A model generated the notes under the pieces. The model was given only the letters and a program-made list of their open reading frames with translations, was not told the origin of the DNA and did no database searches. From positions 295 to 64,294 of the forward strand of contig CAZVEX010000001.1 of the NCBI GenBank assembly GCA_964625535.1: 64,000 bases of DNA, in the 5' to 3' direction. This DNA is from an uncultured Gammaproteobacteria bacterium. GTDB lineage: Bacteria > Patescibacteriota > Microgenomatia > Daviesbacterales > UBA10151. Made by a program: the position numbers and the translations under genes. Below are positions 13,276 to 20,837 of this stretch, piece by piece (position 1 is the stretch's first letter; every line of letters starts with the position of its first letter).

Positions 13276-14757
13276 ATGTTGAAATGGATTTTGGTTATTT
13301 TGGTTTTAACCATTGCTTTGCGCATTGTGTATATTCCATCGGGCGCAGTTTCATTTCACTATGACATGGCAAGAGACGCATATGCAGCCTTGCAGATTTG
13401 GAACGGTGATTTAAAAATTCAAGGCCCTCCCACTTCCACCCCGGGTCTATATCACGGCCCGCTTTATTATTATCTGCTGGCTCCAATTTATGGTTTGGGT
13501 GGAGGAGACCCCCGAGTGGTGGCAATATTTTTTTCTCTGATTAATGCCTTGGTGGTCATTCCGGTGATGTTTTTGGCCAGAGATATTTTTAAATCGGATA
13601 AATGGGCCATCCTTTCCGGAATATTTTTTGTCTTTTCTTTTGAAAACACCCAGTATGGCCCTTGGATTTCAAATCCCGCGCCTGCTGTTTTAACTGTGGC
13701 TTTGTTTTTTCTATTTTTGCTACATTGGCAAAAGGGTAAAGAGTATGGATTATATCTGGCCATAATATCTGCCGCACTTTCCGTGCAATTTCAATTTTTC
13801 TTAATTTATCTTTTGTTTTTAATTCCTGTTTTTGGATATTTATTTAAAATCAAAACAAATTTTAAGCAAAAAATTAATTCTATTTTTATAACCTTAGTTG
13901 GTTTAAGTTCGTTTTTTGTGGCGGCTTTAAAGTTTGGAAATTTGCAAAATTTTACAGGAGGATTTTTCAATATTGCAACTGCCGGTCAAATTGATTTTAG
14001 GTCACAATTTAGTGCACTGGCGCTAAATTATCTGGACAAATTTTCCGAAACTTTTATTTATAACTTTTTCCCTACTAATGTTTTTCTGGGAGGATTATTG
14101 GCATTTTTGAGTTTAATACTACTCAAAAATAAACTTCTGTTTTTTTATTTATTTTTTAATTTGCCCATTTTTATTTTTGGCGGTCACAGCAATACTTATG
14201 CCAATTTAGGGTTAGTCGTGGGAGCGATTTTGGCAGTTTTGAACACGATTAAAATTATTGCAAAAAAGAGCGTCATACTTGCGGCAGCATTGATTTTACT
14301 TTTGGCTATATCTAATCTTTATGCCATATTTAAAAACGGGCCCTTGGGACAAGTTATTTTGGTAATCCCCAATGATATGGTTTTAAAAAATCAATTAAAA
14401 TTAATAGATGAAACTTACCAAAAAGCCGCGGGTCAAGCATTTTCCATAAATACTTTAACGCTCCCTCTTTGGACAAATACCACATGGAGTTATCTTTATT
14501 CCTGGTATGGGCAAAAAAAATACGGATATGTGCCAAAGTTTTTAGGACACAATCAAGTCGGGTTGTTAGGGGCAAATGCCTTGGAAAAAATAGACCAACC
14601 GCTTGAAAAAACGTTTTTCATTATCGAACCCCATGTGGGAATTCCCGATGATATTTATAATCTGGAAATAGGAGCAGAGGATAGTAAAAGCAAATTAATT
14701 TCCGAAACAAAATATGGAGAGTTAAGATTGCAATTTAGAATGCCAAAAAATGAATAA
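13276..14757 (+). CDS. GT-C-fold membrane glycosyltransferase (family with the YDMARD / GPPTS-GLYHGPLYYY N-terminal motif)
   Basis: It shares the N-terminal motif and a C-terminal W(Y/W)G(Q/K)KKYGY(V/I)P motif with the ORF at 14750 and with the C-terminal half of the ORF at 29891. Confidence 0.6.
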   Translation: MLKWILVILVLTIALRIVYIPSGAVSFHYDMARDAYAALQIWNGDLKIQGPPTSTPGLYHGPLYYYLLAPIYGLGGGDPRVVAIFFSLINALVVIPVMFLARDIFKSDKWAILSGIFFVFSFENTQYGPWISNPAPAVLTVALFFLFLLHWQKGKEYGLYLAIISAALSVQFQFFLIYLLFLIPVFGYLFKIKTNFKQKINSIFITLVGLSSFFVAALKFGNLQNFTGGFFNIATAGQIDFRSQFSALALNYLDKFSETFIYNFFPTNVFLGGLLAFLSLILLKNKLLFFYLFFNLPIFIFGGHSNTYANLGLVVGAILAVLNTIKIIAKKSVILAAALILLLAISNLYAIFKNGPLGQVILVIPNDMVLKNQLKLIDETYQKAAGQAFSINTLTLPLWTNTTWSYLYSWYGQKKYGYVPKFLGHNQVGLLGANALEKIDQPLEKTFFIIEPHVGIPDDIYNLEIGAEDSKSKLISETKYGELRLQFRMPKNE

Positions 14758-16249
14758 ATCTAAATTACTTGTTTTCACCATTTTATTATTTGGAATTGTT
14801 TATAGATTGATGATGACTTGGAATGGCAATTTTCTTTTTAACATGGATAATGCCAGGGACATGGTGGATGTTAGGGAAATGGTGGTTTTGGGGAAGTTAA
14901 GACTCACAGGACCAACTTCTGCCATTGAAGGTTTGTTTAACGGACCAGCCTGGTATTATCTTTTGGCTGTCCCCTTTGTTTTAACAGGAGGAGATCCATA
15001 TGGTTCAATTGTCATGGAAATAGTCTTGTGGGCCATTGGAGGATTTTTCCTGCTAAAACTAACCAGTCGATTTGGCCTGTGGGCAGTAGCAGTTTCAGGA
15101 TCTTTGTGGATTGCTTCCAATTATATAGTTTTACTGACTACTTATGCTTTTAATCCTAATCCGGTGACTTTTTTAACACCAGTCCTGATTTTTGCAATCG
15201 AAAAGTTTATCAAAACCGGGAAAATCATTTATTCAATATTTGTATGGATCTTGGCGGGAGCGTTTTTTAATTTTGAGATGAATTTTGGCATCTTCATTCC
15301 GTTTATCATCATCTTTGCCGTTTTTCTCTATAAAAAATCAATACTTAAAAATCTAAGCTTTTGGCTTTCTTCCTTAGCTTTTGTGGCCGCAGTACTGCCG
15401 CAAATCTTCTTTGATCTAAGGCATCAATTTATTATGTCAAAATCAGTGATTAATTTTTTATCACAAGGTGGAAGCTTCAACCTACTGTCGCGGACAACTT
15501 CAGTTTACGGCAGTTTTTACAGCACTTTAAATGCTACTTTCATGAACCAGTCTATCATTACTTTAATGTTTCTTGGGTTATTCTTTATTTATCTTGTGTC
15601 TTTTCTTAAAAGATTCAAGAGCAAAGAGATTTTTGAAACGTCTTGTCTGTTATTTGTGCTGATACCGTTTGGTGGGTATGTTTTGCTGCCTGTTCAAGTT
15701 AATTCCTGGCATTTGGGTGGGGCAATGGTGGCCCTGATTTTACTGCTAATCATCATACTTAATAAATTATCCAAACTTGGACTTGTGATTTCTTTGTTAG
15801 TTATTTTTTATGCTCTTTTCAATATTGTCCGCTTTTTCACTCACGATCTATTGATACCCAATCAAGATCCATCTCTTTTTAAAAATGAAATTGCTGCCAT
15901 AGATTATGTTTACGAGTATGCCAATGGCAAAAACTTTAAAGTATATACATACCTGCCTTCGGTTTATGATTACCCTTACCAATATCTTTTTTGGTGGTAT
16001 GGTAAGAAAAAGTATGGATACATCCCTGGGGAATACGCCTATTCTCCCAATAAACCAACTTATATTCCCAGTCAGGATAAATTTCAAGGAAAGAAGGATG
16101 GTTTTTCCGGAATGCTATTTTTAATAAAAGAGCCGGATAGAAATGACACTCGCTCCGGTTGGGAAGGCCCATTTGCCAAATTGGAAACTGTAAAAAAACA
16201 AATAGTTGGATCATTAGAGATCGAGATAAAAAGAGAAATCAATCAATAG
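14750..16249 (+). CDS. GT-C-fold membrane glycosyltransferase, tandem paralog of 13276..14757
   Basis: FNMDNARDM...GPTSAIEGLFNGPAWYYLL and the C-terminal WWYGKKKYGYIPGEY motif are present. It overlaps the upstream gene by 8 nt. Confidence 0.6.
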   Translation: MNKSKLLVFTILLFGIVYRLMMTWNGNFLFNMDNARDMVDVREMVVLGKLRLTGPTSAIEGLFNGPAWYYLLAVPFVLTGGDPYGSIVMEIVLWAIGGFFLLKLTSRFGLWAVAVSGSLWIASNYIVLLTTYAFNPNPVTFLTPVLIFAIEKFIKTGKIIYSIFVWILAGAFFNFEMNFGIFIPFIIIFAVFLYKKSILKNLSFWLSSLAFVAAVLPQIFFDLRHQFIMSKSVINFLSQGGSFNLLSRTTSVYGSFYSTLNATFMNQSIITLMFLGLFFIYLVSFLKRFKSKEIFETSCLLFVLIPFGGYVLLPVQVNSWHLGGAMVALILLLIIILNKLSKLGLVISLLVIFYALFNIVRFFTHDLLIPNQDPSLFKNEIAAIDYVYEYANGKNFKVYTYLPSVYDYPYQYLFWWYGKKKYGYIPGEYAYSPNKPTYIPSQDKFQGKKDGFSGMLFLIKEPDRNDTRSGWEGPFAKLETVKKQIVGSLEIEIKREINQ

Positions 16250-16639: not shown

Positions 16640-17692
16640 TTAACCCCTTTTCATAAAAAGGTAAACTGCAAAACCGCCCGAGGCAAAAAGAAAAATCCCA
16701 CCCGTGACATAAAATAATGTAGGTACTTTCCCTCCGGCAACTTTTAATTGCGGGGAGGAAGATGCGCGTTTTTGACCAGATGGGGTTGATGATTTTTTGT
16801 ATTTTTCCAAAGAATAGACTATTTCCGGCAACTCTTCTTGTTTTTTGCTTTCTCCTAAAATGGCAGACGATTTGGGAGTTGAAAGTCCTGATAAACTGAT
16901 ACTCCCTTCGGCAATTTCTACCTCCTTGGCATTGATTTTTACAGTTACCTCATTGCTCCAAGTTGGACCTGATCCGCCGGATGTGTATCTGCCGACTTTG
17001 AAACCGTATTCTCCCGCTCCCTGATATCCCGCATCCATGATATCCGGCTGAATTTCCAAGTTTCCTGACCAACTGCCGGATGAGTTGGTGGTAATTTGAT
17101 ACTGGGAAGAAAAACTGCTGCCATTTTTTATCCAAGAAGAGCCTACTTTGGTCAATCCGAAATAATTGCTGGAACCTTCTTTTCTAAAAGCTCCTTTTAA
17201 ATAAAAGTTGGTATTGGGATAAGAAGATAATTCCAAATTTACTGATGTTGTAAAAGTTTGAGTAGAGTCAATTGATGATGGAACATTAGAAATGGTAAAA
17301 GCAGAGGTAGTTGAGGGAGAAGGGGAGGGTGAAGGAGTTGGGGAAGGGGAGGAGGCGGATAGAATAAAAGACCATGTACTACTCCATTCGCTCCACGTTC
17401 CCCCTGAATCCTTGGCTTTAACTCGCCAGTACCAGGTACCAGCTGATAAAACAGGAGTGTAATTGGTATTGGCAGTGGGATAATCTTTAGGTGGCTGAAT
17501 AAAACCTGTCTCATCATCTACCTGAACTCGATAAGGACTGCTGGTGTACAGTAAATACGAAGGAGCCTGCCAGGTTAAGGTGGTGGAAGAAACTGTGGAT
17601 CCGCTGGCTGGAGATTGTTGAGATGGACCGCTGACCGCATAGACGGAATTAACGAAGAACCCCGCTAAAAACAAAATCAGCCACTTGAGCAT
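16640..17692 (-). CDS. secreted surface protein: signal peptide, fibronectin type III-like domain, Ser/Pro/Thr linker, C-terminal TM anchor
   Basis: Signal peptide MLKWLILFLAGFFVNSVYA is followed by an FN3-like WYWRVKAKDSGGTWSEWSSTWSF stretch. Then come an SPSPTPSPSPSPS linker, a Ser/Thr/Gly-rich region and a C-terminal hydrophobic helix TLFYVTGGIFLFASGGFAVYLFMKRG. Confidence 0.6.
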   Translation of the reverse strand: MLKWLILFLAGFFVNSVYAVSGPSQQSPASGSTVSSTTLTWQAPSYLLYTSSPYRVQVDDETGFIQPPKDYPTANTNYTPVLSAGTWYWRVKAKDSGGTWSEWSSTWSFILSASSPSPTPSPSPSPSTTSAFTISNVPSSIDSTQTFTTSVNLELSSYPNTNFYLKGAFRKEGSSNYFGLTKVGSSWIKNGSSFSSQYQITTNSSGSWSGNLEIQPDIMDAGYQGAGEYGFKVGRYTSGGSGPTWSNEVTVKINAKEVEIAEGSISLSGLSTPKSSAILGESKKQEELPEIVYSLEKYKKSSTPSGQKRASSSPQLKVAGGKVPTLFYVTGGIFLFASGGFAVYLFMKRG

Positions 17693-17714: not shown

Positions 17715-18860
17715 TCATAACAGGTGCCAGTAAATAGTGACCAGGCCGTTTTGATGATCAACAACCACCCCTTTAGCGGGTCCGTTATCAAAGCCGGCAA
17801 TCCGACATCCCGAATCTCCGATAGAATAGGCTACCCCGTCGGCAGCAGCTAAAATAGGAGTCCCGACATACTTATCATCATACATATCCAAACCGGTATG
17901 AGTCCCCAGCGCGTATAGTTCCCCATACTCCGTGCTAATGGTGGTTGATCCCGGATAACCTTGCATGGGCGGGCCAAGTTGTCCGTTATCAAGGTATTTA
18001 TGAGGATTGATTCTGCTGCCGTTAACCCTGCCTCCCTCTACTTTGGCATTTTCATAAACTTCAAAATGCAGATGAGGACCGCTGGAACAACCGGATGTTC
18101 CTTCAGATCCTATTTGTTGGCCTTTTTTGACCGGACCGATGACTATTCCCACATTGGATATGGCTCTGGCAATAGAATCTGCATCTGCCTTAAGCTGGGC
18201 AATCAGCCCCTGGAATCTGGCTTCGTCATTTTGGGTGATTCTTAAAAGTTCTTCCTTGGCTTTTTTTTGTTCTTCCAGCTGCTGCTTATAAGTTTCCAGA
18301 TCTTTATTTAATTTTTCCGCCTCTTGTTGTCTTACCTCCTTATCCTGTTTTTGATCGTTGTAAGCTTGCTTAGTAGCTTGCAGCTCATATAATTTCCTCT
18401 TATCATAGGCCTGGGCCACTTGAATATACTTTAACCGTTGCAGCAGATCGGCAAAGCCGTGGGAAGAAAAAAGAAAATCCAGGGTGGACAGATTGGAGTA
18501 TTTATAAGTTTGGACAATTCGCCGCAAGAGAATTTCTGACAGCGTATCCAGCGAGGAAGAAATTCGTGAAATACGGGTTGAGAGCTCGGCAATTTCTCTT
18601 TTGAGTTTTTCAATCCGTAAATTGGTTTCCTCAATTTTTAAGACTGTAACTTTGCCTTGGCTGTCTATAATGTTAAGCTGGGATTTTAAAGTGCGCTCGT
18701 TACCTCTGGCATTTTCAAGCTGGCTTTCCAGTTTGGCAATTTCTGCCTGTTTTTCCTGCAGCTTTGCGCTTAACTCCTCATTAGACTCGGCAAAAACAGG
18801 AAGAAAAAATGGGCTAAGCAAAAAAAGCCCGAGAACAAAGATTAAGAATAGCTTTTTCAT
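17715..18860 (-). CDS. coiled-coil M23-family metallopeptidase (EnvC/PcsB-like FtsEX partner) with an apparently circularly permuted M23 domain
   Basis: Signal peptide, then ~200 aa of coiled coil. The GQQIGSEGTSGCSSGPHLHFEV (HxH) motif comes BEFORE HTGLDMY...GTPILAAADGV (HxxxD) and ...VVVDHQNGLVTIYWHLL. The protein ends right after WHLL. It overlaps ftsX by 4 nt. Confidence 0.8.
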   Translation of the reverse strand: MKKLFLIFVLGLFLLSPFFLPVFAESNEELSAKLQEKQAEIAKLESQLENARGNERTLKSQLNIIDSQGKVTVLKIEETNLRIEKLKREIAELSTRISRISSSLDTLSEILLRRIVQTYKYSNLSTLDFLFSSHGFADLLQRLKYIQVAQAYDKRKLYELQATKQAYNDQKQDKEVRQQEAEKLNKDLETYKQQLEEQKKAKEELLRITQNDEARFQGLIAQLKADADSIARAISNVGIVIGPVKKGQQIGSEGTSGCSSGPHLHFEVYENAKVEGGRVNGSRINPHKYLDNGQLGPPMQGYPGSTTISTEYGELYALGTHTGLDMYDDKYVGTPILAAADGVAYSIGDSGCRIAGFDNGPAKGVVVDHQNGLVTIYWHLL

Positions 18861-19741
18861 ATCCGAAGATATCTTCTGGTGGCGCCAAATGATCCCACTG
18901 CTCCCACTAAACAGGCCAGCAAAATAGCAAGTATAAGCAAAAATATCATCAATACAGGGCTGGGGGGCAAAAGTTTGATTTCACCCAGGTATCCCCCTTG
19001 AATAAAGGGAGTAAAATACCAAAGCAGGATGTAAATGACCGCCCAGGCAAATGTGGCGCCCACCACTCCATAAAACATTCCTTCCAGAATAAAAGGCATT
19101 CTGATAAATGATGTTGATGCCCCCATCAGACGCATGGTTTCGATTTCATTTCGCTTAAGCCTGATCTTAAACCCGATGATCATCAAAATTTGCAGGATGG
19201 CATAAAGTATCAGGTAGGTTACAATTACTCCGCCAACGATTCTAACTACCAGGGTGGCGGTAGAGAGGTTAGCTACTACATCTTCGGGAAAGACCACATC
19301 TTCCACCACCGGTTCCTGTTTTAGGATTTCAGCTACCGGAGCTAAATCTTGCAAAGTTAGAGTGGAAACTTCTAGGGATGGGGGTAGGGTGCTGGCTGTC
19401 ACCAGTTCAACCAAGAGTGGGTCTTTGCCCTGATTAAACTTTTTATAAATTTGCAGGGCCTCTTCCCGGGAAACATATTTGGTTTTGGTGACCTGGTAGT
19501 AGCTTTTCAGGTTGTCTTCTATGGCCTGAATATCTTCTTCGGTGGTGCCGTCTTTAAAAAAGGCGATGACTTGAGGTCTTGACTCATAATATTGTAAAGT
19601 TGCTTGCAACCCGATAGAAATAAGCAGGAAACCGATCAGGGCCAAAAAGGCCGAAAACATGGCCAGGGAGGCGGCTGCGGCCTGAAAGGGGGTTCTTTTA
19701 ATGTTTCTTTTGGCAAATTTAATGTAGTTTCCCAAACTCAT
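18857..19741 (-). CDS. ftsX: cell division permease FtsX
   Basis: Four-TM topology with a large extracytoplasmic loop between TM1 and TM2. It is adjacent to and overlapping ftsE. Confidence 0.8.
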   Translation of the reverse strand: MSLGNYIKFAKRNIKRTPFQAAAASLAMFSAFLALIGFLLISIGLQATLQYYESRPQVIAFFKDGTTEEDIQAIEDNLKSYYQVTKTKYVSREEALQIYKKFNQGKDPLLVELVTASTLPPSLEVSTLTLQDLAPVAEILKQEPVVEDVVFPEDVVANLSTATLVVRIVGGVIVTYLILYAILQILMIIGFKIRLKRNEIETMRLMGASTSFIRMPFILEGMFYGVVGATFAWAVIYILLWYFTPFIQGGYLGEIKLLPPSPVLMIFLLILAILLACLVGAVGSFGATRRYLRI

Positions 19742-20412
19742 TCGTATTTACCCTCCTTAGTGTCTTTGGTGATCTTACCCGCTTTTAGAGTTATTACTCG
19801 CCGCTTCAAGGTATTGACAATTTCTTGGTTGTGAGTAGCCATCAGGATGGTGGTGCCCCAGGAGTTGATCTCATTGAGCAGCTGAATCACTCCCCAGGCT
19901 GTTTTAGGGTCTAAATCGCCGGTTGGCTCATCAGCCAAAACTATGTCGGGTTTACCCACCACCGCCCGGGCAATGACAGTGCGCTGAGCCTCCCCTCCGG
20001 AAAGTTGTCGCGGGAACAAATTCCGCCTATCCCAAATTTCCACCAGTTTTAGAGTATGTTCCACGGCCCTCCCAATTTCCTCATCGGATTTACCCAAAAC
20101 TTCCAAGGCCAGGGCCACCTGCTCAAAAACGGTCCTGTCGTCCAGTAGCTTGAAATCCTGGAAAACTACCCCCACTTTTCTCCTCAAATTTGGGATCTCA
20201 CCGTTTTTTAGTTTAGTAATGTCCATTTTATTAACAACGACTGTGCCGCTTGTGGGTATTACTTCCCGGGTTAGAATTCTCAAAAGGGTGGTTTTACCCG
20301 CTCCGGAGGGTCCAACCAAAAAGACGAACTCTCCCTGTTTAATTTCCAGGGAAATGTCATCCAGAGCGGTAGCTGAACCAAACTTTTTGAAGACTTTGTC
20401 AAATAAGATCAT
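19738..20412 (-). CDS. ftsE: cell division ATP-binding protein FtsE
   Basis: Walker A GPSGAGKTT, ABC signature LSGGEAQR and Walker B ILADEPTGDLD are present. Length is 224 aa. Confidence 0.9.
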   Translation of the reverse strand: MILFDKVFKKFGSATALDDISLEIKQGEFVFLVGPSGAGKTTLLRILTREVIPTSGTVVVNKMDITKLKNGEIPNLRRKVGVVFQDFKLLDDRTVFEQVALALEVLGKSDEEIGRAVEHTLKLVEIWDRRNLFPRQLSGGEAQRTVIARAVVGKPDIVLADEPTGDLDPKTAWGVIQLLNEINSWGTTILMATHNQEIVNTLKRRVITLKAGKITKDTKEGKYE

Positions 20413-20837
20413 TCTACTACTTCAACTCGCCCAACATCCATCAGCCATCCTGCTTCCAGAGCCTTTTGGGTTTCGCCGTATACTTTAACTTTTTTACCTT
20501 CATACAGGGATAAGTCCACCACGGAAGAAGTTAAGGCTACAGGTGGTGTGGAGTCTCTTTGCAAAAGATGAGTTCCTTCGACATATTCTGACGGATCTTT
20601 GGGCTCTGGTCTGGCCGTGAGGGTTCCTTCGGCAAAATCTCTAAAAGTCCGGGTGTCCTGCTGGGGATTTTTAGGTTGGCCTGCCAGCGGAGCGGCGGAG
20701 CGCTTGCCTGCTATCAGATATCCTGTTAAAACTCCCAAAACCAAAGAGAAGATTAAAACTCCCAGGAGAACTCTTTTGGGACTGGCATCTTTGAAAAACT
20801 TCTTGGTAATTTTTTCCCCGCCTTCGAGAGTTTCCAT
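20409..20837 (-). CDS. membrane-anchored hypothetical protein in the prfB-ftsEX operon
   Basis: N-terminal TM helix VLLGVLIFSLVLGVLTGYLIAG, then a ~100-aa soluble domain. No homology recognised. Confidence 0.5.
   Translation of the reverse strand: METLEGGEKITKKFFKDASPKRVLLGVLIFSLVLGVLTGYLIAGKRSAAPLAGQPKNPQQDTRTFRDFAEGTLTARPEPKDPSEYVEGTHLLQRDSTPPVALTSSVVDLSLYEGKKVKVYGETQKALEAGWLMDVGRVEVVE

Follow-up and report, generated by a model that had tools for sequence, protein, structure and literature searches.

The gene described here lies on the minus strand of the window (the whole 64,000-nucleotide stretch of DNA that was analysed), where it follows ftsE and ftsX in a run of four overlapping genes. 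It encodes a protein of 381 amino acids in which a probable signal peptide and a long coiled coil precede an M23 peptidase domain with its two parts in rotated order. The features of the locus are the following, with the two parts of the M23 domain termed segments A and B.

17715..18860, minus strand: whole gene (open reading frame) for a predicted secreted coiled-coil protein with a permuted M23 domain, 381 amino acids
17715-17717, minus strand: stop codon of the M23 gene
17718..17975, minus strand: segment A, canonically the N-terminal M23 part, residues 296-381
17724-17726, minus strand: codon of the catalytic His379, inside segment A
17886-17900, minus strand: HTGLD codons (H321/D325), inside segment A
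17976..18155, minus strand: segment B, canonically the C-terminal M23 part, residues 236-295
18066-18074, minus strand: HxH codons (H263/H265), inside segment B
18156..18788, minus strand: EnvC/PcsB-like coiled coil, residues 25-235 (AlphaFold, Foldseek, hhalign)
18789..18860, minus strand: probable Sec signal peptide, residues 1-24, MKKLFLIFVLGLFLLSPFFLPVFA and then ES (sequence features only)
18857..19741, minus strand: ftsX (Pfam FtsX_ECD, 8e-15; FtsX, 8e-11)
19738..20412, minus strand: ftsE, ABC ATPase (Pfam ABC_tran, 1.5e-35)
20409..20837, minus strand: single-pass membrane protein of 142 amino acids, first of the four overlapping genes

The four genes are tightly packed. The M23 gene starts within an ATGA that also contains the stop codon of ftsX, ftsE and ftsX are joined by an ATGA as well, and both the ftsX/ftsE pair and the pair formed by ftsE and the 142-residue protein gene share four bases. 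The gene prfB lies just upstream of the run. The 142-residue membrane protein has no Pfam match; its gene precedes ftsE in most loci from Daviesbacteria to Levybacteria, at 35-77% identity, and its membership of the ftsEX-M23 system is uncertain. On the other side of the M23 gene, 22 bp separate its stop codon from the next gene.

Searches with tblastn recovered prfB, the 142-residue protein gene, ftsE, ftsX and the permuted M23 gene in the same order at approximately 40 of 46 related loci, with the departures located mostly on short contigs. The arrangement prfB-(142 aa)-ftsE-ftsX-M23 is kept from Daviesbacteria to WWE3 and Dojkabacteria, and three divergent permuted members likewise adjoin ftsE-ftsX. 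For one of these (P0300) the next gene after ftsE-ftsX-M23 encodes a CtpB-like S41 protease, which is the arrangement (ftsE-ftsX-M23-S41 protease) that is also found around a canonical-order M23 protein of Desulfofarcimen acetoxidans (P0328). An initial reading of the sequence had described the gene as occupying the ‘classic position’ after ftsE-ftsX, like that of EnvC or PcsB. That description fits the Firmicutes-type ftsE-ftsX-M23-ctpB cluster but does not hold in E. coli, where envC and ftsEX are located apart.

The N-terminus of the protein (a basic n-region, a hydrophobic core and VFA at positions −3 to −1) has the features of a probable Sec signal peptide spanning residues 1-24, and is followed by a heptad-rich stretch of approximately 210 residues. 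An AlphaFold model of the full-length protein (mean pLDDT 81.4) places helices at residues 27-52, 58-122 and 136-235, the last of which passes without a linker into a strand at residues 237-244. The turn in the coiled coil, YKYSN-STLDFLFSSHGFADLL (about residues 119-139), is conserved. When this model was searched with Foldseek, the best matches were 8tzl_E, which is EnvC in the V. cholerae FtsEX-EnvC complex, and 6tpi_A, which is E. coli EnvC bound to the periplasmic domain of FtsX; RipA/RipC and PcsB (4cgk, 6ewy, 8idc) ranked lower. The EnvC/PcsB-like coiled coil that had been proposed for the N-terminal part was borne out by hhalign, which aligned the whole of it with those of canonical-order, FtsEX-linked coiled-coil M23 proteins (probability 100%, E 8.9e-45). 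Scores to family-specific models fell below their cut-offs (24.6 bits versus 270 for the NCBIfam EnvC equivalog NF008644, 22.5 versus 450 for the PcsB equivalog NF046104, and 19.2 versus 27 for Pfam CC_PcsB, PF24568), and Pfam gave no match to a CHAP domain in the protein. Together, the common gene arrangement and the coiled coil make the permuted proteins homologues, in genomic position as well as in the coiled coil, of the M23 proteins of canonical order that are linked to FtsEX.

The final 146 residues of the protein read NVGIVIGPVKKGQQIGSEGTSGCSSGPHLHFEV...NPHKYLDNGQL-GPPMQGYPGSTTISTEYGELYALGTHTGLD...GTPILAAADGV...VVVDHQNGLVTIYWHLL-stop. The HxH motif lies within VKKGQQIGSEGTSGCSSGPHLHFEV, HTGLD follows 58 residues further on, and the chain ends directly after VVVDHQNGLVTIYWHLL, only two residues beyond His379. 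Segment B corresponds to the pattern V..Gq.iG-GtsGcSsGPHLHFEV...NP..YL and segment A to P..G..itSteYG...HTGLD...GTPILAAADG...VVVDHQNGLVTIYWHLL. The HxH and HxxxD motifs each occur in one copy in the 381 residues, and the account of the motif sequence given in the sequence-only reading proved accurate in this respect.

Alignments to canonical M23 domains displayed the same rotation. The Pfam Peptidase_M23 model (PF01551) matched with 54 bits against a gathering cut-off of 28.7 (E 2e-14), with the match split into two stretches, and the native sequence gave no colinear match to that model (HxxxD before HxH). In a phmmer search of PDB sequences, query residues 314-380 aligned to the N-terminal part of a canonical M23 domain (5j1l, residues 58-116) and query residues 244-268 to its C-terminal part (residues 127-151). 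We then used a synthetic re-ordered sequence, consisting of residues 296-381 followed by residues 236-295. This sequence matched the Pfam model in a single stretch (model positions 2-92 of 96, E 2.6e-18), and the best E-value against the PDB improved from 2.6e-6 for the native order to 1.8e-12. The artificial junction WHLL|NVGIVIGPVKKGQ aligned without gaps to AHLNKIVVKTGEFVKKGQ. With 6jmx as the reference, positions 103-195 of the family profile aligned to residues 118-198 and positions 47-83 to residues 198-235; the two pieces abut exactly, indicating that nothing has been either lost or duplicated. Finally, in the hhalign comparison with canonical coiled-coil M23 proteins, residues ∼243-286 (most of segment B) appeared as an insertion after the coiled coil, and the alignment resumed at P..G..ITS.fG...HTG.D...Y.H. 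Judged from these alignments, the M23 domain of the 381-residue protein is a circular permutation of one domain. The rotated motif order, and a break between Y.HL and V..G, were both part of the initial proposal, and the swapped alignments, the continuous match after re-ordering and the abutting profile pieces agree with it on both points.

A separate model of the domain (residues 233-381) was predicted with a pLDDT of 87.8 and a pTM of 0.87, and consists of ten strands and one short helix which, by our own reading of the model, would correspond one-to-one to the canonical M23 elements in rotated order. A Foldseek search of the PDB with this domain-only model returned noise and no M23 match. 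Given a permutant, an order-dependent aligner should yield half-domain matches of low rmsd, which count as indirect evidence; the missing M23 match may reflect the failure of such a local aligner when faced with two short rotated pieces.

The extent of the family was established with profiles, since a search with the single sequence was limited by its word index and found only four relatives. A profile search gave more than 4,600 matches, of which the best 120 were all ∼380-400 amino acids in length. HxH preceded HxxxD in all 122 close homologues, and in every one of the 121 of these that could be scored the C-terminus fell exactly two residues past the Y.H histidine. When 1.84 billion cluster representatives were searched exhaustively with HMMER, 592 scored at E<=1e-10. 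Among the best 150 representatives of 50%-identity clusters, 117 had the permuted order, nearly all with the same coiled-coil-plus-domain architecture, so that the motif order for which a homologue check had been suggested recurs in close and diverse relatives alike. The chain ends two to three residues past the catalytic histidine in 132 of 147 diverse members (∼90%).

The nearest genome, Candidatus Daviesbacteria UBA9644 (L001), encodes a full-length orthologue with 88% identity. The names attached to members are Daviesbacteria, Microgenomates, Woykebacteria, Curtissbacteria, Levybacteria, WWE3, Dojkabacteria and the ‘Patescibacteria group’; every permuted member that bears a taxonomic name belongs to Patescibacteria, with one so labelled among the divergent members, for which cluster look-ups yielded hardly any names. 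Matches from Oscillospiraceae, Chloroflexi, Marinimicrobia and Dormibacterota have the canonical order. A match from Komeilibacteria (L058), considered as an orthologue, proved to be an unrelated MepM-type M23 protein of canonical order. The permuted members are labelled generically in source databases, and none of the NCBIfam models is specific for them.

In lysostaphin, zinc is bound by H279, D283 and H362, and H329 and H360 are catalytic. The catalytic histidine of the Y-M-H-L sequence in lysostaphin, His329 (H82 in the mature numbering), and H260 of LytM have their counterpart in H379 of the present protein. Residues H263, H265, H321, D325 and H379 are kept in 99 of 99 diverse permuted members and H369 in 94 of those 99, and all six are invariant in 118 close homologues; the earlier statement that all metal-ligand residues are retained thus extends to the family. 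The protein also has a pair of cysteines, Cys258 and Cys351, that might form a disulfide or cap the zinc as a ligand. In E. coli EnvC, the LytM domain lacks these catalytic residues and is enzymatically dead; it serves to activate amidases, and a restraining-arm helix holds it in place. The full-length AlphaFold model of the permuted protein contains no such helix between the coiled coil and the domain. As far as sequence and model can indicate, the intact catalytic set and the missing restraining arm favour a role of the permuted protein as a hydrolase over one as an activator of amidases.

Comparison with known systems places the protein closest to the canonical FtsEX-linked coiled-coil M23 proteins of Firmicutes and Actinobacteria (for example P0328 of D. 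acetoxidans). These have in common with it a signal peptide, a coiled coil of ∼230 amino acids, one M23 domain with intact catalytic residues and a gene directly after ftsE-ftsX, sometimes followed by one for a CtpB-like S41 protease; they are annotated as ‘murein hydrolase activator EnvC family’ or ‘peptidoglycan DD-metalloendopeptidase family’. They differ in having the order HxxxD...HxH and in ending with ...NP..YL, whereas in the permuted protein that last third is located between the coiled coil and the rest of the domain. EnvC of E. coli and V. cholerae (6tpi, 8tzl, 8hd0) is alike in its coiled coil, LytM-type domain and FtsEX partnership, but differs in that the permuted protein keeps its catalytic residues, has no predicted restraining helix and scores far below the NCBIfam EnvC cut-off. 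PcsB of S. pneumoniae, CwlO of B. subtilis and RipC/RipA of Mycobacterium follow the same logic, in which a coiled-coil adaptor for FtsX is joined to an active peptidoglycan hydrolase, but catalysis in them is by a cysteine peptidase domain of CHAP or NlpC/P60 type rather than by M23. LytM, lysostaphin and other single-domain M23 enzymes have unrotated connectivity and no coiled-coil fusion, while the permuted protein combines rotation with fusion. A natural precedent for swapped order of catalytic residues is provided by the circularly permuted NlpC/P60 families (YaeF/poxvirus G6R, LRAT-like; PMC6403190). Those are papain-like cysteine peptidases, distinct from M23 in both fold and catalytic class, and they were the only permuted cell-wall hydrolases that we found; the literature searched contained no description of a permuted M23/LytM domain.

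We therefore considered several explanations for the unusual order of the motifs. That it could be an artefact of assembly, frameshift or gene calling in the window is extremely improbable: the order and the C-terminus are common to well over a hundred independently assembled homologues at 28-88% identity (from NCBI, ENA, JGI and Logan), which excludes misassembly, and the gene is a single intact reading frame that is translationally coupled to ftsX. It is also very improbable, although somewhat less so, that the protein is the remnant of a tandem M23-M23 protein, with a truncated or degenerate second domain and a first domain that has lost its N-terminal half. Tandem M23-M23 proteins do exist, they match the profile of the permuted family continuously across their junction, and the spacing from HxH to HxxxD in them is 57-70 amino acids compared with 58 here; they offer a plausible evolutionary route to a permutant. 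As a description of the present protein, however, a remnant is at odds with the single motifs, with two pieces that abut on canonical sequences without loss or overlap and are predicted as one confident, compact domain (pTM 0.87), and with a coiled coil that reaches residue 235 and a reading frame that ends two residues past His379. Nor are tandem domains any closer to the permuted family than are the FtsEX-linked canonical ones. The 22 bp downstream of the stop codon leave no space for a relic second half-domain, and no second M23 domain is encoded elsewhere in the window. Two findings that would have overturned the sequence-only reading were likewise discarded: given the single motifs, the abutting pieces and the extent of the coiled coil, HTGLD at the C-terminal end does not belong to a degenerate second domain, and no HxxxD of canonical order was overlooked upstream, since that motif occurs once, after HxH. 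A further proposal, in which the protein would be a catalytically silent activator that, like EnvC, switches on a separate amidase, seems to us improbable given that zinc ligands and catalytic histidines are kept in 99 of 99 diverse members, that no helix is predicted for an EnvC-type restraining arm, and that the NCBIfam EnvC score is 24.6 against 270.

The reading that we prefer, to which we assign a probability of roughly 85%, is that the protein is the counterpart, in Microgenomates-type Patescibacteria, of the FtsEX-linked, EnvC-like coiled-coil M23 proteins, with its single M23 domain circularly permuted. In it, the canonical C-terminal third (V..G...HxH...NP..YL) has been relocated to a position directly behind the coiled coil, the two thirds that come first in a canonical domain (the lead strand, HxxxD and ...Y.HL) now close the protein, and the former C- and N-terminal tails are fused head to tail as a connector. 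Along the connector, the tail that ends a canonical domain (...NP..YL) passes into the lead that begins one (P..G..itS.fG), a composition that, at the level of sequence, would be expected after a duplication and subsequent truncation. As nearest relatives, or as the duplication intermediate, tandem M23-M23 proteins were not supported (83-87 bits, compared with 95 bits for FtsEX-linked canonical domains). A crude neighbour-joining tree of re-ordered domains gave no clean separation of permuted from canonical sequences, with 15 of 253 misplaced at the best split, and distances within the permuted family (0.62) were close to those between it and canonical coiled-coil M23 proteins (0.63). Our main argument for a probable single origin of the permuted family is the break point, which is identical across it.

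By analogy with known FtsEX partners and from its conserved residues, the protein is most likely an active, FtsEX-controlled septal peptidoglycan endopeptidase. Through its long antiparallel coiled coil it presumably binds to the extracellular part of FtsX, and the permuted domain would fold as a normal M23 barrel, bind zinc and, unlike E. coli EnvC, itself cut peptidoglycan cross-links. ATP turnover by FtsE, transmitted through FtsX and the coiled coil, would then gate the hydrolase at the septum. We infer this docking and gating from the paradigm established for FtsEX with EnvC, PcsB, CwlO and RipC.

Whether the permutation also alters regulation, relative to the canonical proteins, is a separate matter, and it could be neutral. 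The new chain ends may flank His379, with the coiled-coil helix entering the strand that canonically follows that histidine. Because the termini would bracket His379 and the helix is linkerless, the permutation may provide a short and stiff connection from coiled coil to active site. We consider it possible, if rather unlikely, that the permutation is an adaptation by which a constitutively active M23 endopeptidase became mechanically gated, such that ATP-driven movements of FtsX could directly assemble and disassemble the active site. A serious alternative, which we hold to be distinctly the more plausible of the two and still short of an even chance, is that the permutation, though genuine, has no bearing on function and simply became fixed, as a frozen accident, early in this lineage of Patescibacteria, and that the protein works exactly like canonical FtsEX-linked hydrolases. 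The re-ordered core scores nearly equally against canonical domains (median 95 bits) and against its own family (109.5 bits), the coiled coil and gene neighbourhood are as in canonical relatives, and no extra element accompanies the permutation, all of which are consistent with neutrality. Less easily reconciled with it are a C-terminus fixed two to three residues past the catalytic histidine in ∼90% of members, across deep divergence, and the linkerless junction of helix and strand; these two features point to selection on the new termini, in a manner that is suggestive only.

Few peptidoglycan hydrolases have been studied as much as those with M23/LytM domains (lysostaphin, LytM, EnvC, NlpD, ShyA, Csd and SpoIIQ). 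In the literature searched, a natural circular permutant of the fold is apparently undescribed, and we regard the present protein as a topological variant rather than a new kind of system, one that should be moderately surprising to specialists. A deeply conserved permutant would indicate that the M23 fold tolerates a break beside a catalytic histidine, which may be useful for the engineering of lysostaphin-type enzybiotics. It also exposes a blind spot of annotation, in that permuted proteins are tagged ‘M23 family’ because the model matches two pieces that are out of order. If the permutation is neutral, it is a tidy evolutionary curiosity and brings no new mechanism. Mechanical gating, if true, would be a mode of control unlike both the restraining arm of EnvC and the autoinhibition of PcsB and CwlO, and the family would offer a natural experiment on FtsEX coupling, with the change placed exactly where force would enter the domain. 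To our knowledge, the division and envelope biology of Microgenomates-type Patescibacteria is almost unknown, and the permuted M23 protein may mark the cell-division machinery of these ultra-small bacteria.

The protein cluster representatives P0180, P0186, P0211, P0222, P0253, P0257, P0261 and P0267 from the profile search carry two M23 domains in tandem, and the profile of the permuted family matches them continuously across the junction between domain 1 and domain 2. The distance from the HxH motif to the HxxxD motif is 57–70 residues in these tandem M23-M23 proteins, as compared with 58 residues in the permuted protein. They illustrate, without proving it, a duplication and truncation route to the permuted M23 domain.

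Two cysteines of the 381-residue permuted M23 product are encoded in the window as follows:

18087-18089, Cys258 codon, in the GCSxGPHLH loop
17808-17810, Cys351 codon, in a low-confidence loop (residues 349–362)

Cys258 is invariant and Cys351 nearly invariant in the close family, and among diverse permuted members Cys258 is paired with a loop cysteine in every case (39/39). Other subfamilies display an alternative placement, with one cysteine immediately before the HxH motif (STGCHLHF) and one after HxxxD. Close to the active site of the permuted M23 domain, the conserved pairs could be linked as a disulfide or serve as a metal-capping ligand.

Further genes in the window, beside the permuted M23 gene or elsewhere, comprise:

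20409-20837, (-), 142-residue single-pass membrane protein, upstream of ftsE
16640-17692, (-), 350-residue secreted protein, rich in Ser, Pro and Thr and anchored in the membrane at its C-terminus
13276-14757, (+), multi-pass membrane protein of ~495 residues, first of a pair
14750-16249, (+), multi-pass membrane protein of ~495 residues, second of the pair

In many related loci, the gene for the 350-residue protein, which has no significant Pfam match, comes directly 3' of the permuted M23 gene, with tsaE following it. The members of the (+)-strand pair are overlapping neighbours that look like paralogous glycosyltransferases; the first product scores 24.2 bits against PMT_2 (glycosyltransferase family 39-like), slightly under the cut-off of 26.1, whilst for the second product there is no Pfam match.

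The Daviesbacteria-type prfB-ftsE-ftsX-permuted-M23 operon is also present in many MAGs whose title reads 'uncultured Gammaproteobacteria bacterium ... binchicken' (related loci L003-L008, L010, L012-L015 and others), with operon protein identities of 55–68% and a GC content of 33–40%. The taxonomy in these titles looks wrong or like a placeholder.

In a Microgenomates MAG, ftsX and the permuted M23 gene flank the gene for a second coiled-coil paralogue (locus L040, 2605-3831; also locus L044, 2716-3411). Its coiled coil is EnvC/PcsB-like, of the same type as in the permuted M23 protein, whereas its C-terminal domain is Cys-peptidase-like (GCLVTSMAM...HFMVI) rather than M23. FtsEX may therefore serve two different hydrolases in that setting. 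One WWE3 genome also encodes an additional coiled-coil paralogue.

The stop of the 142-residue membrane protein gene overlaps the ftsE start by four bases in the window, and its product has no Pfam match. Since its position 5' of ftsE is kept in most of the related loci from Daviesbacteria to Levybacteria (35–77% identity), this protein may represent an as yet undescribed partner of FtsEX in that lineage.
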